The translations under genes were made by a program, and so were the position numbers. Of a stretch of 39,736 nt of DNA, positions 165 to 39,322 are shown in pieces (within the stretch, counting starts at the first letter, position 1; every line of letters starts with the position of its first letter). Under the pieces are notes generated by a model. That model ran no database searches and was not told where the DNA came from. It worked only from the letters and a program-made list of their open reading frames with translations. Source of the stretch: a phage; sequence record PZ379179.1. One strand, written 5' to 3'.

Positions 165-340
165 TTTGAGTCTCTATCTGTATAACCATAAGTCACAACC
201 ATAGGTCACAGCCTACCTCTCACAACCATAAGTCATAACCTACAGTCTCACTAACCTACAGTCTCAACCATAAGACACCAACACCTACAGTCATAGACCT
301 ACAGTTAATAGACACAAGGCTATAGACTTAAGGTCTAAGA
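165..340. repeat. Array of short degenerate direct repeats inside the left end
   Basis: Reiterated units such as AACCATAAGTCA and CCTACAGTC (e.g. 195-310); no coding signal. Comparable to T7 end-proximal short repeats. Confidence 0.5.
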
Positions 341-2177: not shown

Positions 2178-2282
2178 ATGAGCACTGCAATCATCTGGAC
2201 TATCTCAGGCTTCGTAGCGTGGGGAATGTTTACTCTAGTCTGCAAACTACCGGTCCTTACTCAACTGTTATGGGGCTTATGA
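2178..2282 (+). CDS. Small hydrophobic peptide (34 aa), candidate membrane protein
   Basis: ATG at 2178 with TAGGA RBS 7 nt upstream; MSTAIIWTISGFVAWGMFTLVCKLPVLTQLLWGL is one predicted TM helix. Below the track size cut-off. Confidence 0.35.
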   Translation: MSTAIIWTISGFVAWGMFTLVCKLPVLTQLLWGL

Positions 2283-2813: not shown

Positions 2814-2836
2814 ACTTAACTATCACTATAGGACTC
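2814..2836 (+). promoter_or_regulatory. Phage RNAP promoter upstream of the RNAP gene
   Basis: TTAACTATCACTATAGGA matches the genome-wide promoter consensus; predicted +1 G at 2831. Followed by direct repeats AAGTGAAAGAC (x2) before the RNAP start. Confidence 0.6.
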
Positions 2837-5843: not shown

Positions 5844-6059
5844 ATGAAATTTGCACACAAGCATACTGGCGTTAATGGTGGGACTCAAATCGTGACCGTA
5901 ACAGAACACAACGGCAAGGGTCTGGTGAAGACCACGGTCATCCCTACCGAGATGTCCAAGCAGCTTAACATCCCGTTCAAGACTCTTGTATATCTGGTCG
6001 AGTCCAGCCACGAGAAGTACCTGAAGGACGCAGTGTCCAAGCTGGAGCAGGCCAAATGA
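5844..6059 (+). CDS. Hypothetical protein (71 aa)
   Basis: ATG with AAGGAGA RBS; phage-typical codon usage. Confidence 0.55.
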   Translation: MKFAHKHTGVNGGTQIVTVTEHNGKGLVKTTVIPTEMSKQLNIPFKTLVYLVESSHEKYLKDAVSKLEQAK

Positions 6060-6124
6060 CAGACATACAGTTACTGGCCCTGTGGCTGGGAGCACTCGCA
6101 GTATTCACTTTAATCCAACGCAGA

Positions 6125-6147
6125 AGAGGTTAACCCTAAACTATCAC
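6125..6147 (+). promoter_or_regulatory. Phage RNAP promoter (phi1.1-like)
   Basis: CCTAAACTATCACTATAGGA; predicted +1 G at 6142. Confidence 0.7.
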
Positions 6148-9114: not shown

Positions 9115-9809
9115 ATGGCTAAAGAGCAACTGAAGACTTTCACCACTCCGGTAGCTGGTATCGTTGAGCCTTACGCATGGCTGAACAAAGCAGACACCAA
9201 GTTTAACGAGCGTGGTGAGCATAAGGTTAACCTGACGTTCGACCTGAGCGACCCGAAGGTCCGTAAGATGATTGATGTCTTACAGAAGATTCACGACGAT
9301 GCGTATGCAAAAGCACTCGCAGACCACGAGAAGAACCCCCTCAGGTTCAGCGTGGCAAGAAGCCTATTGAACCACGAGAAGGCGACATGCCGTGGATTGA
9401 GAATGGTGACGGTACTGTTACCCTTAAGTTTAAATGCTTTGCGTCTTACCTGAAAGACGGCAAGTCCGAGCCTATCGTATTACGGTTCTACGACACCGAT
9501 GCTAAACTCATCCGTGACGTCCCGAATATCTGCGCTGGGTCTAAGCTGAAGGTCAAGTTTAAAGTCCTGCCGTTCAAGTGGAACGCTGCGACTGGTGCAA
9601 GCGTTAAGCTCCAGCTTGAGTCCTGCCTTCTGGTAGAACTGAAGGAGTGGAAAGGCGATGGTGGCGATGGTGGCTGGGGTGATGATGAAGACCTTGGTAC
9701 TGGCTACAAAGCGTCAACCGTTGGTGACTTCGGTGGTGATGACTTTGGGTCTGACGATGGTTCCGAAGGTGGTGACGACTCCAGCTCTGATGGCGATTAC
9801 GACTTCTAA
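9115..9809 (+). CDS. ssDNA-binding protein (T7 gp2.5 homolog), frame interrupted at a C5 run
   Basis: Track ORFs 9115..9453 and 9387..9809 together align with T7 gp2.5 (N-terminal part in one frame; PPQVQRGKKP...MPWIENGDGTVTLKFKC...GSKLKVKFKVLPFKWNAATGASVKLQLE and the acidic C-terminus ending DGDYDF in the other). The frames meet at CCCCC 9336-9340. Confidence 0.85.
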
Positions 9810-10261
9810 TGGCCCAATGGTCTGCAAAACGGGGGCACTCTGTGGGTGCCTACCGCTCTGGACTTGAAGCCAAGAACCAGCAGTGGCTGGAACAGAACGG
9901 CGTCAAAGCGGAGTACGAAAGCCATTATATCAACTATGTGATTCCGGCTTCCGACCACAAGTACACACCAGATTTTATCCTTCCTAACGGTATCATCGTG
10001 GAGACCAAAGGTATCTTCGATAGTGATGACCGTAAGAAGCACCTTCTGGTACGAGAACAGCACCCAGAGTTAGACATCCGGTTCGTGTTCTCAAGTTCAC
10101 GCTCCAAGTTATACAAAGGGTCTCCAACCACGTATGGCGCATGGTGCGAAAAGAACGGCTATAAGTATGCCGATAAATTCATCCCGGTTGAGTGGCTTCG
10201 AGAGGCGACTGTACGTCTGCCTTCAGGTATACTCATCCCCAAGAAGAAAGGAGTTAAGTGA
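9809..10261 (+). CDS. Endonuclease I, Holliday-junction resolvase (T7 gene 3 homolog)
   Basis: 150 aa; VGAYRSGLE...YVIPASDHKYTPDFILPNGIIVETKG...DDRKKHLLVREQHPELDIRFVFSSSRSKLYKGSPTTYG nearly collinear with T7 endonuclease I. Confidence 0.93.
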   Translation: MAQWSAKRGHSVGAYRSGLEAKNQQWLEQNGVKAEYESHYINYVIPASDHKYTPDFILPNGIIVETKGIFDSDDRKKHLLVREQHPELDIRFVFSSSRSKLYKGSPTTYGAWCEKNGYKYADKFIPVEWLREATVRLPSGILIPKKKGVK

Positions 10262-16410: not shown

Positions 16411-17273
16411 GCGAAAAGAAAATAGCTCTTGTGTTAGATGGTGACTATCTGGTCTTCTCTTCTATGGCTGCTGCCGAGGACGAGACAGACTGGGGCGATG
16501 ACATCTGGACCCTTATCTGCGACCATGCAAAGGCTCGTCGTATCCTTGAGAACACCATCGCTGAAATCGTTAAGAAGCGCAAGGCGTGGAAAGACGCTAA
16601 GATTGTGATGTGCTTCACTGACGATTACAACTGGCGTAAGGACGTCCTACCTACCTATAAGGCCAACCGTAAAGGTTCTCGCAAGCCTGTAGGTTACAAG
16701 AAGTTCGTAGCCGAAGTGATGGCTGACCCACGGTTCAACAGCTTCCTGCGTCCTGCGCTTGAAGGCGATGATTGTATGGGTGTCATCGGGACCAGACCTC
16801 AGATTGTAGGCTGTGACCATGCTGTTCTGGTGTCCTGTGATAAGGACTTCAAGACCATCCCTAACTGTGAGTTCTTCTGGTTAACCACTGGTGAAATCCT
16901 GAGTCATACGACTGCTGAGGCAGACTACTGGCACATGGAGCAAACCATCAAGGGTGACACCACAGATGGCTACGGTGGCATTCCGGGGATGGGTGAGGAT
17001 ACCACACGCGCGTTCCTTGACGAGCCGTACTACTTCGTACAGGAGAGCCGTGAGCTTAAGACTGGTAAGAACAAAGGCCAGATTAAGACTGAGTGGAAGA
17101 AGTATCCAAAGCGTGACGACATGACGCTGTGGGACTGCATGGTGACTCTGGCTGCTAAAGCTGGGATGACCGAGGAGGAACTTCTGGTCCAAGCTCAGGT
17201 CGCTCGTATTTGCCGAGCCTCCGACTACGACCCTAAGTCCAAGGAGGTCATCCTATGGACACCATCCATGTAA
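16401..17273 (+). CDS. 5'-3' exonuclease (T7 gene 6 homolog)
   Basis: LVLDGDYLVF...CDHAKARRILE...YKANRK...KPVGY...SCDKDFKTIPNC...KGDTTDGYGGIPG...LWDCM...AKAGMTEEE collinear with T7 gp6. The track ORF opens at 16353 inside gp5.7; start is the ATG at 16401 or GTG at 16407 after GGAGG. Confidence 0.92.
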   Translation: MPVSEKKIALVLDGDYLVFSSMAAAEDETDWGDDIWTLICDHAKARRILENTIAEIVKKRKAWKDAKIVMCFTDDYNWRKDVLPTYKANRKGSRKPVGYKKFVAEVMADPRFNSFLRPALEGDDCMGVIGTRPQIVGCDHAVLVSCDKDFKTIPNCEFFWLTTGEILSHTTAEADYWHMEQTIKGDTTDGYGGIPGMGEDTTRAFLDEPYYFVQESRELKTGKNKGQIKTEWKKYPKRDDMTLWDCMVTLAAKAGMTEEELLVQAQVARICRASDYDPKSKEVILWTPSM

Positions 17274-17347
17274 TTTACTGGGTCGGACTTCTGGCCCTTT
17301 ACTGCATGTACAAGTGGTTCGGGTCGAACAACCGTCCGAAACACTAA
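17255..17347 (+). CDS. Small hydrophobic ORF (30 aa), gene 6.3 position
   Basis: ATG with AAGGAGG RBS 7 nt upstream; MDTIHVIYWVGLLALYCMYKWFGSNNRPKH. Below the track size cut-off. Confidence 0.4.
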   Translation: MDTIHVIYWVGLLALYCMYKWFGSNNRPKH

Positions 17348-17399: not shown

Positions 17400-17422
17400 A
17401 CTAAACTATCACTATAGGGACT
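17400..17422 (+). promoter_or_regulatory. Phage RNAP promoter (phi6.5-like)
   Basis: ACTAAACTATCACTATAGGGACT; predicted +1 G at 17417. Confidence 0.75.
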
Positions 17423-17999: not shown

Positions 18000-18422
18000 A
18001 TGCTACCATATCTCAACTCACGCGAAGGTCGCCACATGTGCGCCTGCCGCCTCTGGGAAGACGGGCAGTCTAACTTCAAGTCATTCGAGGACTTCAAGGC
18101 TCATACTTACCGTATGGCTGACGAGTTCGACGGTGAAGAATACACGATCTACGATGTCTCAGGTCAACCAGTAGCGTATCTCTACATGCTGGCTACCACA
18201 TCTTGGCACCGACCGACTCCCGGTCTTGACCTTTCAATCGTCGCTATTCGTCGTGACTCGCAGTCCTCCCGCAAGGTTCTTGAGACTGTCAGGTACATCA
18301 TAGACGAAGAGTGCAAGCGTTGGGGTCTTGGCTGGTATTCTCGTGTCAAGCATGTTTCCGGGTCGGTAGACATCGTAACAACCAAGTGCGTTAGCACGAA
18401 CAAGGAGATTAACCGTGGGTAA
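18000..18422 (+). CDS. gp7-like virion / host-range protein (140 aa)
   Basis: ATG ORF at the T7 gene 7 position; assigned by position and size only. Confidence 0.5.
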   Translation: MLPYLNSREGRHMCACRLWEDGQSNFKSFEDFKAHTYRMADEFDGEEYTIYDVSGQPVAYLYMLATTSWHRPTPGLDLSIVAIRRDSQSSRKVLETVRYIIDEECKRWGLGWYSRVKHVSGSVDIVTTKCVSTNKEINRG

Positions 18423-18663
18423 ATCAATCAGTAAGGCCTTCAGTAAAGTAGTAAAAGGTGCTTTAGGGACCGTTGGTCTTGGTTCTAACGATGCACCTAA
18501 GGTTGTTGAGGCTCAGACCCCAGCAGCGCCAGTGGAAGTACCGAACGACAAAGTGGAAGATGTGGATACCGAAGCGACTGCATCTGACGAGAAGAAAGTG
18601 AAGCGTTCCGGTAAGCGGAGCCTTCAGGTCTCTCGCACCTCTGGTGGCGGTATTTCTATATAG
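18415..18663 (+). CDS. gp7.3-like tail protein (82 aa), GTG start
   Basis: MGKSISKAF...RSGKRSLQVSRTSGGGISI resembles recalled T7 gp7.3 (MGKKVKKA...SLSVARSSGGGINI). GTG start with AAGGAGA 7 nt upstream. Confidence 0.75.
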   Translation: MGKSISKAFSKVVKGALGTVGLGSNDAPKVVEAQTPAAPVEVPNDKVEDVDTEATASDEKKVKRSGKRSLQVSRTSGGGISI

Positions 18664-22397: not shown

Positions 22398-22660
22398 CGA
22401 CCTTTAAGGCCCTCTCTACAGAGGGTCCTACCTTAGAGACGTATAGTTCTACGGTGGGAACCAGCCTGAAGGTTGACTTCCCTGAGCTTTCAGATGTGAC
22501 CGATTGGTCGCTGCTTGAGGTGACTACGCCTGATGGTGTTAGCTACTCCCGTAGAACCAACAGTCTCTACTTCAAGGCCACCTCTGGCGTGGAAGGTCTG
22601 GTGATTGTTGGGTATGACGGTACGCCTGTGCGTTCCTTCAACGTATCTTTCACAAACTAA
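21348..22660 (+). CDS. Minor capsid protein 10B, predicted -1 ribosomal frameshift product
   Basis: Slippery G_GTT_TTC at 22370-22376 lies 7 codons before the 10A stop. The -1 frame is open from there to 22660 (about 94 extra residues), analogous to T7 10A/10B. Confidence 0.5.
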
Positions 22661-22664
22661 TTGA

Positions 22665-22703
22665 AACCCCTTGGGTGCCTTCGGGTGCTTGAGGGGTTTT
22701 TTG
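22665..22703 (+). terminator. Tphi-like late terminator
   Basis: AAACCCCTTGGGTGCCTTCGGGTGCTTGAGGGGTTTTTTG: GC-rich hairpin plus U-tract, closely resembling the T7 Tphi terminator downstream of gene 10. Confidence 0.85.
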
Positions 22704-22717
22704 CTTAAGGAGGGACT

Positions 22718-22807
22718 ATGGTCCTTATTTACACAGGGTTAGCACTATTCGTCTTATTCTGGGCGTACCTGCTGTCCAGCTCACCGTCTAGCGCCTATGA
22801 CCGTTAA
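22718..22807 (+). CDS. Small hydrophobic ORF (29 aa)
   Basis: ATG with AAGGAGGG RBS just after the terminator; MVLIYTGLALFVLFWAYLLSSSPSSAYDR is one predicted TM helix. Below the track size cut-off. Confidence 0.4.
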   Translation: MVLIYTGLALFVLFWAYLLSSSPSSAYDR

Positions 22808-22818
22808 GGAGTAAACCT

Positions 22819-23385
22819 ATGGCTCAATACATTCCACTGAATGCTAACGATGACTTAGATGCCATCAACGATATGTTAGCAGCTATCGGTGAACCAGCAG
22901 TCCTACAGCTTGACGAAGGTAACGCTGACGTCTCGAACGCTCAACGTATCCTGCATCGTGTCAATCGTCAGGTCCAAGCTAAAGGCTGGAACTTTAACAT
23001 CAACGAAGCTGCTGTCCTGACACCTGATGTCCAAGACAATAGGATTCGATTCCTGCCGTCTTACCTTCGGGTCATGACTGCTGGTGCTACCAGTTACTAC
23101 AGCAACATGGGGGGCTATCTCTATGACCTCTCCACTCAGTCCACGACCTTCACTGGACCAATTACAGTCGAACTGGTGGAGATGAAACCGTTCGCTGAGA
23201 TGCCTGTAGTATTCCGTGACTACATCGTTACCAAGGCTAGCCGTGAGTTCAACGCTAAGTTCTTCGGTAGCCCAGAGTCTGAACTGTACCTTCGTGAGCA
23301 GGAAGCAGAACTCTACCAGCAGGTGATGGAGTACGAGATGGACACTGGTCGCTACAACATGATGTCCGACATCGGGAGGGACTAA
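22819..23385 (+). CDS. Tail tubular protein A (T7 gene 11 homolog)
   Basis: 188 aa; AINDMLAAIGEP, RILHRVNRQVQAKGWNFN and IVTKASREFNAKFFG match T7 gp11 motifs. Confidence 0.93.
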   Translation: MAQYIPLNANDDLDAINDMLAAIGEPAVLQLDEGNADVSNAQRILHRVNRQVQAKGWNFNINEAAVLTPDVQDNRIRFLPSYLRVMTAGATSYYSNMGGYLYDLSTQSTTFTGPITVELVEMKPFAEMPVVFRDYIVTKASREFNAKFFGSPESELYLREQEAELYQQVMEYEMDTGRYNMMSDIGRD

Positions 23386-23612
23386 TGGCTAGTCACAACC
23401 TGAAGATTCACCGCCAGCACTTTGGTCCGGTACAACTAGGTCTAAAGACAGCAGAGCTGAGACTTAACGACCGGGACTTTAAGGTTGGCGACTGGCTTAT
23501 CCTGAATGAGTGGGACAACGGGTATACTGGACAACAGGTAGCACGTAAGGTTGTCCACATTGCTGACGTTGGTGACATCGCTGAGGGATACGTCCTAATG
23601 AGTATGATTTAA
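23385..23612 (+). CDS. ASCH / DUF3850-like (PUA-fold) small protein inserted between tail genes 11 and 12
   Basis: 75 aa; start overlaps the gp11 stop. LKIHRQHFGPVQLGLKTAELRLNDRDFKVGDWLILNEW fits the DUF3850/ASCH pattern as I recall it (ELKIWPEYF...GRKTFE.RKNDRDYKVGD.L.L.E). Confidence 0.6.
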   Translation: MASHNLKIHRQHFGPVQLGLKTAELRLNDRDFKVGDWLILNEWDNGYTGQQVARKVVHIADVGDIAEGYVLMSMI

Positions 23613-35673: not shown

Positions 35674-35868
35674 ATGATTGAGTTAGACTTCAAGAATGAG
35701 GTCCTCAAAGCCTCGCCTATCGTCGGGACCGCTGCGGCTGATGGTGCCAGTCGGTTCTTCTTTGGGCTAACGCTCAACGAATGGTTCTACGTCGCTGCTA
35801 TCGCGTACACCGTGGTGCAGATTGGCGTCCTAATTTACAAGACGATTAAGAGCGGAGGTAAGACATGA
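35674..35868 (+). CDS. Class II holin (T7 gp17.5 homolog)
   Basis: 64 aa; FFGLTLNEWFYVAAIAYTVVQIG matches T7 holin FFGLSLNEWFYVAAIAYTVVQIG. Confidence 0.9.
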   Translation: MIELDFKNEVLKASPIVGTAAADGASRFFFGLTLNEWFYVAAIAYTVVQIGVLIYKTIKSGGKT

Positions 35869-36128
35869 CGCAGATGGACTTAGAGAAGTTCCTGTTAATG
35901 CTGGACACAGAACGTGCTAGACTAATGCTGCAAGACCTGCGGGATGACTCTAAGCGTTCGCCCCAGCTCTACAACGCCATTGAGAAGCTACTGGCTCGTC
36001 ACAACTTCGTGCTAAGCAAGGTGTCTGTTGACGAGAAGACGCTCGCTGATATGGAGGCCCTGAACGCAGAGTACGATAAGGTGCTCTCCGCTACGGAAGA
36101 TAATGACACAGGGTATGGTGTTCAATAA
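35865..36128 (+). CDS. Terminase small subunit / DNA maturation protein A (gp18-like)
   Basis: 87 aa ORF between holin and spanin with overlapping start; assigned by position and size. Confidence 0.65.
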   Translation: MTQMDLEKFLLMLDTERARLMLQDLRDDSKRSPQLYNAIEKLLARHNFVLSKVSVDEKTLADMEALNAEYDKVLSATEDNDTGYGVQ

Positions 36129-36130
36129 GT

Positions 36131-36171
36131 GTTAGACTCAAGGTCATCGTCAGGTGGCCTTTATGGTTAAC
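36131..36171 (+). ncRNA. Candidate RNase III processing hairpin (R18.5-like)
   Basis: GTTAGACTCAAGGTCATCGTCAGGTGGCCTTTATGGTTAAC, the third copy of the element at 6144 and 13375; at the position of T7 R18.5. Confidence 0.45.
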
Positions 36172-36224
36172 ACTAACTAGTGGAGGAGACTCTACGTGAA
36201 ATCTGATAAACCGGGAGGGCAACT

Positions 36225-36671
36225 ATGCTCGAATTTTTAAAGAGAGCGGCTCCGTGGTTACTTTCAGCAGTGATATTTGCTGGTGGCTACCACACCGCTA
36301 ACAATAAGTGGGAGGCTAAGGTCAATGCAGAATACACCTCGAATCTTAAGGCATCGGAGGATACAAGACTTGCTGTCCAAGCTGAAGTCAACAAAGTGTC
36401 CAAACGGTTTCAGGACGAAATGTCCTCGCTGGAAGGCAGCACTGATAGGATTATTGCTGACCTTCAGTCTGACAATAAGCGGTTGCGCATCCGAGTCAAA
36501 CCTACGAGTGGAACCACGCAAAGTGACGGTCGATGCGTCATTGATGGTTACGCCGAACTTGACGAACGAGATGCTAAACGTCTTATCGCCATCGGAGTGA
36601 AAGGAGACAAATGGATTAAGGCGCTTCAGGACACTGTGAGAGCCTTGCAGCAAGATAAGGAGGCCCAATGA
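36225..36671 (+). CDS. i-spanin, Rz-like (T7 gp18.5 homolog)
   Basis: 148 aa; MLEFLKRAAPWLL...LEGSTDRIIADLQSDNKRLRIRVK...LDERDAKRLIA...GDKWIKALQDTVRALQ matches T7 gp18.5; N-terminal TM segment. Confidence 0.9.
   Translation: MLEFLKRAAPWLLSAVIFAGGYHTANNKWEAKVNAEYTSNLKASEDTRLAVQAEVNKVSKRFQDEMSSLEGSTDRIIADLQSDNKRLRIRVKPTSGTTQSDGRCVIDGYAELDERDAKRLIAIGVKGDKWIKALQDTVRALQQDKEAQ
36325..36600 (+). CDS. o-spanin, Rz1-like lipoprotein embedded in the +1 frame of the i-spanin gene
   Basis: Track ORF 36277..36600 in an alternative frame inside gp18.5; contains a lipobox-like LTISGC after a hydrophobic stretch LIGLLLTFS. Start uncertain (first ATG at 36325). Confidence 0.45.
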   Translation: MQNTPRILRHRRIQDLLSKLKSTKCPNGFRTKCPRWKAALIGLLLTFSLTISGCASESNLRVEPRKVTVDASLMVTPNLTNEMLNVLSPSE

Positions 36672-39163: not shown

Positions 39164-39322
39164 ATGGCAAAGACCAAAGCTGTACTTAAAGCTCTGGCGA
39201 CCAATCGAGCTACATACAGGTTTCTTGCTGCTGTTCTACTTGCTGCTGGCGCTACTACTGGAAGTCAGTGGGTCGGGTGGGTCGAGACTCTCGTATGTTC
39301 TCTGGTGTCTGAGTGTCGTTAA
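39164..39322 (+). CDS. gp19.5-like small protein (52 aa)
   Basis: ATG with GGAGG 10 nt upstream; MAKTKAVLKALATNRATYRFLAAVLLAAGATTGSQWVGWVETLVCSLVSECR. Last ORF before the right terminal repeat, as T7 gene 19.5. Below the track size cut-off. Confidence 0.45.
   Translation: MAKTKAVLKALATNRATYRFLAAVLLAAGATTGSQWVGWVETLVCSLVSECR

Follow-up and report, generated by a model that had tools for sequence, protein, structure and literature searches.

Small hydrophobic ORFs have been recognized in T7-type genomes since the first annotation (genes 0.5, 1.4, 1.5, 6.3, and 19.5). Genes 0.5, 1.4, 1.5, and 19.5 encode products of 29 to 51 amino acids with one hydrophobic helix, have a Shine-Dalgarno (SD) site of their own, and lie between larger genes; they are either nonessential or without an assigned function. 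The ORF at positions 22718 to 22807 (+ strand) of the phage DNA analyzed here (39,736 nucleotides, referred to as the window) resembles them in all of these respects, but it sits between a Tphi-like terminator and gene 11, where T7 has nothing. Another difference is that T7 gp1.5 has its own family (phrog_12128), whereas the Kayfunavirus alleles of this 29-amino-acid (29-aa) product match no family at E ≤ 1 in PHROGs v4 and have no match in Pfam-A or NCBIfam. We consider it quite likely, judging from sequence comparisons, that 22718..22807 is a genuine translated accessory gene whose predicted product is a 29-residue single-pass inner-membrane peptide. What is new here is an uncharacterized 29-aa member of a kind of small hydrophobic gene that has long been known in T7-like phages.

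The source genome is that of a Kayfunavirus, a K1F-like coliphage podophage of the T7 group, with T7 gene order and every gene on the + strand. The 1.1 kb around the 29-aa ORF matches 258 phage records, the closest of which are Kayfunavirus, with 99.6% identity to Escherichia phage vB_EcoP-U8 and 98.9% identity to LM33_P1. The phage promoter core AACTATCACTATAGG is found in 11 copies in the window, against about one expected by chance, and these copies mark out the transcription units. A Tphi-like intrinsic terminator for the phage RNA polymerase (22664..22703, +), seen in the MFE fold and in a terminator scan as a GC-rich hairpin with a U-run, closes the capsid (gene 10A/10B) transcription unit and is near-identical to the T7 Tphi region. 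The 29-aa ORF follows directly 3' of this hairpin and U-run and ends 11 nt short of gene 11 (22819..23385, +), the coupled downstream gene, identified as that of tail tubular protein A from the annotations of relatives. Because the small ORF and genes 11 and 12 lie behind Tphi, and because the promoter-core scan of the window found no phage promoter between 21227 and 26008, they can be transcribed by read-through only.

Two further ORFs in this part of the window can be mentioned in their own right. The first, of 68 aa (22454..22660, +), follows capsid gene 10A and is the extension through which a −1 frameshift yields minor capsid protein 10B. Phage Peacock has it as part of a joined CDS, several records treat it as a "hypothetical protein" of its own, and Cronobacter phage Dev2 names it gp10.1. 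The Dev2 gp10.1 (PMC4925675) was considered as a membrane ORF and rejected, as it is this same 10B extension. Between genes 11 and 12, a 75-aa ORF (23385..23612, +), named "RNA-binding protein" in the RefSeq record of LM33_P1, has a start that overlaps the gene 11 stop codon; it is found in Peacock and not in K1F or T7, which makes it another accessory insertion, the second within the tail-tube operon.

The 29-aa ORF starts with an ATG and is preceded by the SD site TAAGGAGG (22706..22713, +), whose duplex with the anti-SD sequence has an energy of −12.6 kcal/mol; the 4 nt between the SD site and the ATG are fewer than optimal, and this counts against reading the ORF as a gene. Its product, MVLIYTGLALFVLFWAYLLSSSPSSAYDR, has a predicted N-terminal transmembrane (TM) helix spanning about residues 2 to 20, a stretch without charge and with a mean Kyte-Doolittle (KD) value of 2.2 over 19 residues, followed by the polar tail SSSPSSAYDR. 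The strong ribosome-binding site (RBS) and the clear TM helix that a first-pass annotation had ascribed to this ORF are thus both borne out. When every start of every ORF of 20 to 59 aa on both strands was scored for SD energy and hydrophobicity, the 29-aa ORF proved to be the strongest combination of SD site and hydrophobic stretch in the window. At cutoffs of SD ≤ −7 kcal/mol and KD17 ≥ 2.0, it is the sole + strand ORF of this size range to pass, and no − strand ORF passes; 40 second-order Markov simulated genomes, used as a control for chance, gave a mean of 0.075 passing ORFs per genome.

Homologues fall into four sequence types. Kayfunavirus allele A, the sequence of the window, was found by tblastn in 47 phage records, and Kayfunavirus allele B (MFYLLTALGLFVSFWAIILLTGPCSPYDR) in about 19; a Klebsiella Przondovirus type (MFIVLSAVSLAVATMLYVVVTGPCSPYDK) is present in 6 phage records, and a Klebsiella/Proteus Molineuxvirinae type of 37 aa (MYYLLCVTLLLFASFWCYVLATGPVSVAERRDNANSK) is present in 17. 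Wherever the flanking DNA was read, it is the slot between the capsid-gene terminator and gene 11 that holds the homologue. Alleles A and B are only 54% identical at the nucleotide level, within flanks that are otherwise 95 to 100% identical; their synonymous sites are saturated and their nonsynonymous difference is 0.33 to 0.38 per site, and both still have 29 codons with start and stop preserved, 15 of the 29 residues being the same. The eight codons for TGPCSPYD, common to allele B and the Przondovirus type, differ at synonymous third positions only, the next residue being R versus K. A search of IMG/VR with the back-translated pattern TGPCSPYD[RK]-stop returned only three contigs that had already been found.

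These comparisons bear most directly on the possibility that the frame is open by chance within a noncoding spacer, or that the conserved entity is a cis-acting RNA or DNA element. The ORF is indeed very short, and many depositors have left it unannotated. Against a chance frame, the three 29-codon types keep frame, length, start, and stop at 45 to 57% nucleotide identity (the Molineuxvirinae type has 37 codons), and neither alternative frame is open in more than one of 10 variants. Residue similarity also exceeds that of shuffled sequences for every pair of types (p ≤ 4e-4), with at most one of 5,000 shuffles, in which the compositions of helix and tail were kept apart, reaching the score of the pair. 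The dN/dS in within-type comparisons is about 0.25 to 0.6 (NG86) and the between-type E-values range from 1e-2 to 2, values that rest on 29 codons and are individually weak. An RNA element is opposed by the absence of a conserved structure (RNAalifold −0.25 kcal/mol, single-sequence z-score −1.56) and of any match in an Rfam scan. A chance frame or cis-acting element is thus largely refuted already, and we regard it as very improbable.

What is kept across the types is the hydrophobic helix, the length, and a juxtamembrane P-x-S, usually followed by Y-D-R/K. This C-terminal stretch is the best conserved part of the peptide, with only P23 and S25 invariant in the tail across the four types; the C-terminal motif is lost in the Molineuxvirinae type and in phage vB_EcoP-22664UKE3-2. 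In the latter phage, a 1-nt deletion rewrites the last four residues, so that the Y-D-R end gives way to ...SSPSSPMTAKE and the new stop falls between the SD site and the ATG of gene 11; the deletion reflects a frameshift that the phage tolerates or else an error in sequencing. A lipoprotein or o-spanin (Rz1-like) identity was also considered and rejected, as the lipobox [LVI][ASTVI][GAS]C is missing after the helix: no Cys follows the helix in allele A or in the Molineuxvirinae type, and allele B and the Przondovirus type have T-G-P-C, with Pro at −1. Within allele A, the changes are mostly nonsynonymous (V2F, G7W, A9V, S20P, A26P/L, and R29H/C; pairwise dN/dS of 0.6, again over 29 codons), suggesting that individual residues are loosely constrained.

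The way in which the ORF is fitted to gene 11 gives further insight into its translation. In relatives that do not have the 29-aa ORF, GCTTAAGGAGGGCCTATGGCT right after the terminator opens gene 11 directly; this is the case in Peacock, CLB_P1, and K1F and in the IMG/VR loci L013, L014, L016 to L018, L020, and L022. In the window, that same SD site and ATG open the 29-aa ORF instead. The start site of the ORF must therefore be translation competent, because the identical site serves the essential gene 11 in the relatives. Gene 11 is provided with a second SD site, TAAGGAG (22805..22811, +), which contains the TAA stop of the 29-aa ORF, and this placement of the stop inside the gene 11 SD points to translational coupling. 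The same arrangement is found in allele B (TAGGAGG) and in the Przondovirus type (TAAGGAGG), and in the Molineuxvirinae type the small ORF runs 17 nt beyond the SD-preceded ATG of gene 11. All four sequence types consequently place a short, coupled ORF directly upstream of a gene, the position occupied by leader peptides of the TnaC, SecM, and MifM type. In such arrest peptides, a conserved C-terminal motif acts within the ribosome tunnel, and in those of the MifM type a TM segment is already outside the ribosome when arrest occurs.

It could be, then, that the ORF is mainly a translational device, in which ribosomes stop in or just past the gene 11 SD and reinitiate, thereby controlling how much tail tubular protein A is produced from the rare transcripts that read through Tphi, with the peptide itself incidental or rapidly degraded. 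The stop embedded in the gene 11 SD in three types, the 17-nt overlap in the fourth, the takeover of gene 11's own initiation region, and the loose residue-level constraint within allele A would all agree with such a device. However, most relatives, including T7 and K1F, express gene 11 without an ORF of this kind, and a device for coupling has no need for a hydrophobic helix of 19 to 20 residues and a P-x-S tail that are kept through synonymous saturation. We therefore think it unlikely that coupling is the main purpose of the ORF, and we prefer to view it as a gene for a membrane peptide whose translation is linked to that of gene 11.

The distribution of this gene is that of an accessory element. 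Allele A or B is present in about 66 of the 258 records that match the region, roughly a quarter, and of 24 Kayfunavirus loci sampled from IMG/VR, 4 have the ORF. It is absent from T7, K1F, Peacock, CLB_P1, and most IMG/VR relatives, and none of 48 more distant gene 11 loci (51 to 56% gp11 identity) has any hydrophobic small ORF in the slot. Because the ORF is missing from very close relatives, it must be dispensable. No host or prophage copy was found by blastn against 5,426 complete E. coli genomes, and no correlation with host was seen in the record metadata. From these patterns, the 29-aa ORF appears to behave as a cassette between the conserved terminator and gene 11 flanks, one that would be exchanged between co-infecting podophages by way of those same flanks. 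In the Przondovirus type, the cassette is bracketed by a repeated RBS, with AGGAGGCTTTATGTT on both sides.

In its presence or absence between exact conserved flanks, the ORF is comparable to morons and other accessory cassettes, such as HNH homing endonucleases, but it differs from the HNH-type cassettes in having no nuclease or mobility function and in being transcribed by read-through, with no promoter of its own. In one Kayfunavirus contig from IMG/VR (L005, IMGVR_UViG_3300045988_000061, around positions 9800 to 10000), the 29-aa ORF is replaced by an ORF whose end resembles an HNH endonuclease (…CQRCNCAIGLL…), which suggests that the slot is a recurrent insertion site.

On the reading that we favor, a dispensable gene for a membrane peptide, the transcript would arise only by Tphi read-through from late promoters of the phi9/phi10 type. 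Translation would start at the RBS that drives gene 11 in relatives lacking the ORF and would end inside the second gene 11 RBS, so that the peptide would be made together with the tail tube proteins. The predicted product would then consist of the hydrophobic helix, from residue 2 to about residue 20, and a polar tail of 9 to 10 residues. With 29 residues, barely more than the ribosome tunnel holds, the helix could not have left the tunnel at termination, and membrane insertion would accordingly be posttranslational. The positive-inside rule places the tail, probably but weakly, in the cytoplasm.

Antiholins such as T4 RI and the bacterial proteins AcrZ, MgrB, and KdpF are small regulators that bind a larger membrane protein. 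The 29-aa peptide is like them in size class and in combining a single helix with a short tail, but its sequence is unrelated to theirs, and it is coded outside the lysis cassette. The peptide probably acts late in infection by binding a membrane protein of the phage or the host. Our preferred specific guess, offered tentatively and with low confidence, is that it modulates holin triggering or lysis timing. This guess comes first because the peptide would be coexpressed late with the structural and lysis proteins, and such late expression is compatible with a role in lysis timing. The lysis cassette itself (genes 17.5 to 18.7) does not include the 29-aa ORF, which sits between genes 10 and 11, about 13 kb upstream of the homologues of holin 17.5 and spanin 18.5 (35674..36671).

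The first-pass annotation had pointed to superinfection exclusion, besides lysis timing, as a possible role for small membrane peptides of this kind, and the peptide might on that account block the ejection or entry of a second phage's DNA at the inner membrane. A small single-pass membrane peptide that is accessory and patchily distributed is typical of exclusion genes and morons, and two of the similar ORFs in the window (2178..2282 and 6056..6133) lie in the early region, 5' of the promoters at 2818 and 6139, where exclusion would be useful. The 29-aa ORF, on the other hand, would be expressed late only, behind Tphi and with the tail proteins, when exclusion brings little benefit to a fast lytic phage. 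Exclusion proteins of the T4 Imm/Sp type are made early, a timing that an ORF in a late unit with no promoter of its own does not share, and the family and structure libraries contain no known exclusion protein with similarity to the peptide. Placement in the late Tphi read-through unit is easier to reconcile with a membrane function late in infection than with exclusion of the classical early type. Exclusion is accordingly improbable for the late 29-aa ORF and plausible for the early ORFs 2178 and 6056.

A late membrane role could also be directed at host defense, with the peptide neutralizing an abortive-infection effector that is associated with the membrane and responds to a late trigger such as the capsid protein. 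The F-plasmid PifA system is an abortive-infection system triggered by T7 gp10, in agreement with a note in the T7 RefSeq record. The gene lies directly after the capsid gene and would be made at the same time, and its presence or absence among near-identical phages and its spread over three lineages infecting Enterobacteriaceae are both typical of counterdefense genes. This case is purely circumstantial, however, with no homology to known antidefense proteins found and no host correlation seen in the metadata, and we judge an antidefense function on its own to be quite improbable. A broader and more speculative formulation, to which we give a small but slightly better chance, is that of a horizontally exchanged late membrane microprotein, always coupled to tail tubular protein A, which would confer a conditional advantage either by neutralizing a membrane abortive-infection effector triggered by capsid or other late proteins or by retuning holin triggering. 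If this were true, a counterdefense or holin-retuning microprotein of only 29 residues would represent a new class of phage factor.

These possibilities have some practical weight. The 29-aa gene is spread over three Autographiviridae lineages used in phage therapy against capsulated E. coli and Klebsiella, and should it prove to affect lysis timing, exclusion, or host range, the choice and engineering of therapeutic phages would have to take it into account. If it has no measurable effect, it is one more accessory microprotein of the T7 type. Natural pairs of phages that are close to isogenic with and without the gene exist in the form of the window or LM33_P1, on the one side, and Peacock or CLB_P1, on the other.

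Database and literature searches added little to the interpretation of the peptide. The Przondovirus and Molineuxvirinae types gave only weak, chance-level family matches (E of 0.06 to 0.3), and the best PDB chain profile had a nonsignificant E of 3.1. When 1.84 billion cluster representatives were searched by phmmer with a 30-residue translation, the sole match apart from the ORF's own cluster was a repeat protein of 237 aa, which is spurious, and literature searches found no paper on the ORF. Four GenBank records and one UniRef entry contain the exact 29-aa protein under the name "hypothetical protein," and other variants are deposited likewise. The first-pass annotation had described the small ORFs of the window as missed by the ORF track. 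The 29-aa ORF is unannotated in many records, but exact 29-, 30-, and 34-aa proteins already stand as "hypothetical protein" in some GenBank records. More generally, phage annotation routinely drops small hydrophobic genes, as seen in the 25-aa ORF at 6056 and in the absence of the 29-aa ORF from PHROGs.

Some of the existing annotations of the slot are themselves questionable. In phage Pipis, the call CPT_Pipis037 (220..324 of the extracted locus, L118) is a TTG-start ORF in the wrong frame that begins inside the terminator hairpin; its frame is closed in the window, and it is likely a misannotation. In several Klebsiella/Proteus Molineuxvirinae records (position 1553 of loci L031 and L032), gene 11 is started at an ATG 45 nt before the SD-preceded one, likewise a probable misannotation, which hides the small ORF.

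The three ORFs that had been listed as similar to the 29-aa ORF are found, as it is, at the coordinates given to them (2178..2282, 6056..6133, and 17255..17347, all on the + strand). The four share one architecture, with a very short N terminus, one helix, and a polar or basic C-terminal tail, and each is translationally linked to a neighboring gene. All four frames are open in every relative that carries them, with an excess of third-position changes, so that the lack of frame conservation that would have spoken against them was not encountered. The core of the earlier claim, that these are real small hydrophobic genes with translation signals, is thereby backed, with conservation supporting all four; ORFs 2178 and 6056, in the early region, and ORF 17255, in the middle region, are conserved genes of the same small hydrophobic kind. 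The individual features are more uneven than had been claimed. A strong RBS is seen for 22718 and 17255 (SD AAGGAGG, −12.1 kcal/mol) but not for 6056 (moderate, −5.6 kcal/mol) or 2178 (SD AGGA, weak, −4.0 kcal/mol), and a TM helix is evident in three of the ORFs but borderline in 17255 (KD19 of 1.29).

ORF 17255 (30 aa, phrog_28149) is the positional counterpart of T7 gene 6.3. It overlaps the 3' end of gene 6 (exonuclease, ending at 17273) by 19 nt, with a phi6.5-type promoter following at 17404. In T7, where gene 6 ends at 18406, gene 6.3 (18394..18507) likewise begins within the final codons of gene 6, follows a strong SD, and lies upstream of a phi6.5-type promoter. Both products have a helix and a basic tail, but T7 gp6.3 is longer (37 aa), belongs to DUF5516/phrog_11345, and is more hydrophobic (KD19 of 2.05 versus 1.29). 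Sequence homology between the two was considered and rejected, since there is no BLASTP alignment at E ≤ 100, no Pfam DUF5516 match, and a different PHROG. The ORF is kept in 24 of 24 sampled relatives, mostly with a GTG start and with in-frame length variation that keeps the NRPKH end; its variable sites by codon position number 3, 3, and 9, and it is annotated in many records. T7 gp6.3 has been reported to be nonessential (PMC9825161).

The 25-aa ORF at 6056 (MTDIQLLALWLGALAVFTLIQRRRG) is clearly hydrophobic. Its start overlaps the stop of an upstream 71-aa gene (ATGA), and its own stop edges the promoter at 6139. The ORF was found in 176 phage records, which span several host genera, and is intact behind three unrelated upstream genes, with the ATGA overlap every time. 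The variable sites by codon position number 12, 7, and 19, and the most distant copy (L048) has mostly synonymous changes. In the two records inspected for annotation, it is unannotated in K1F and replaced by a wrong-frame call in MZ234021, and among deposited proteins a single variant was found. The last nine codons (6105..6133, +; TLIQRRRG and the stop) are almost invariant, even synonymously, among 22 variants. Together with the abutment of the ORF's end on the promoter at 6139, this near-invariance hints at an overlapping constraint at the nucleotide level.

The 34-aa ORF at 2178 is moderately hydrophobic (KD19 of 1.82), and by its sequence features taken alone it does not rise above background: at its own cutoff, 8 ORFs pass on the + strand and 4 on the − strand, versus 2.5 in the simulations. 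At 2279, an ATGA joins its stop to the start of the next gene, which ends at 2482 and encodes a 70-aa single-TM protein of the widely conserved phrog_2385. ORF 2178 is present in 43 records, some of which annotate it, and in CR8-like phages it keeps its 34 codons at 47% amino acid identity, with 18, 14, and 28 variable sites by codon position. Downstream of it, a perfect phage promoter core (2818..2832, +) stands just 5' of the phage RNA polymerase gene (2906); the T7 record, by contrast, has no phage promoter annotated between phiOL and gene 1.

A further small hydrophobic ORF, absent from the first-pass list, lies at 39164..39322 (+). It encodes 52 aa, has an SD energy of −11.6 kcal/mol, and aligns with T7 gene 19.5, with which it shares a TYRFL...VCS motif (pairwise BLASTP E of 3e-5).
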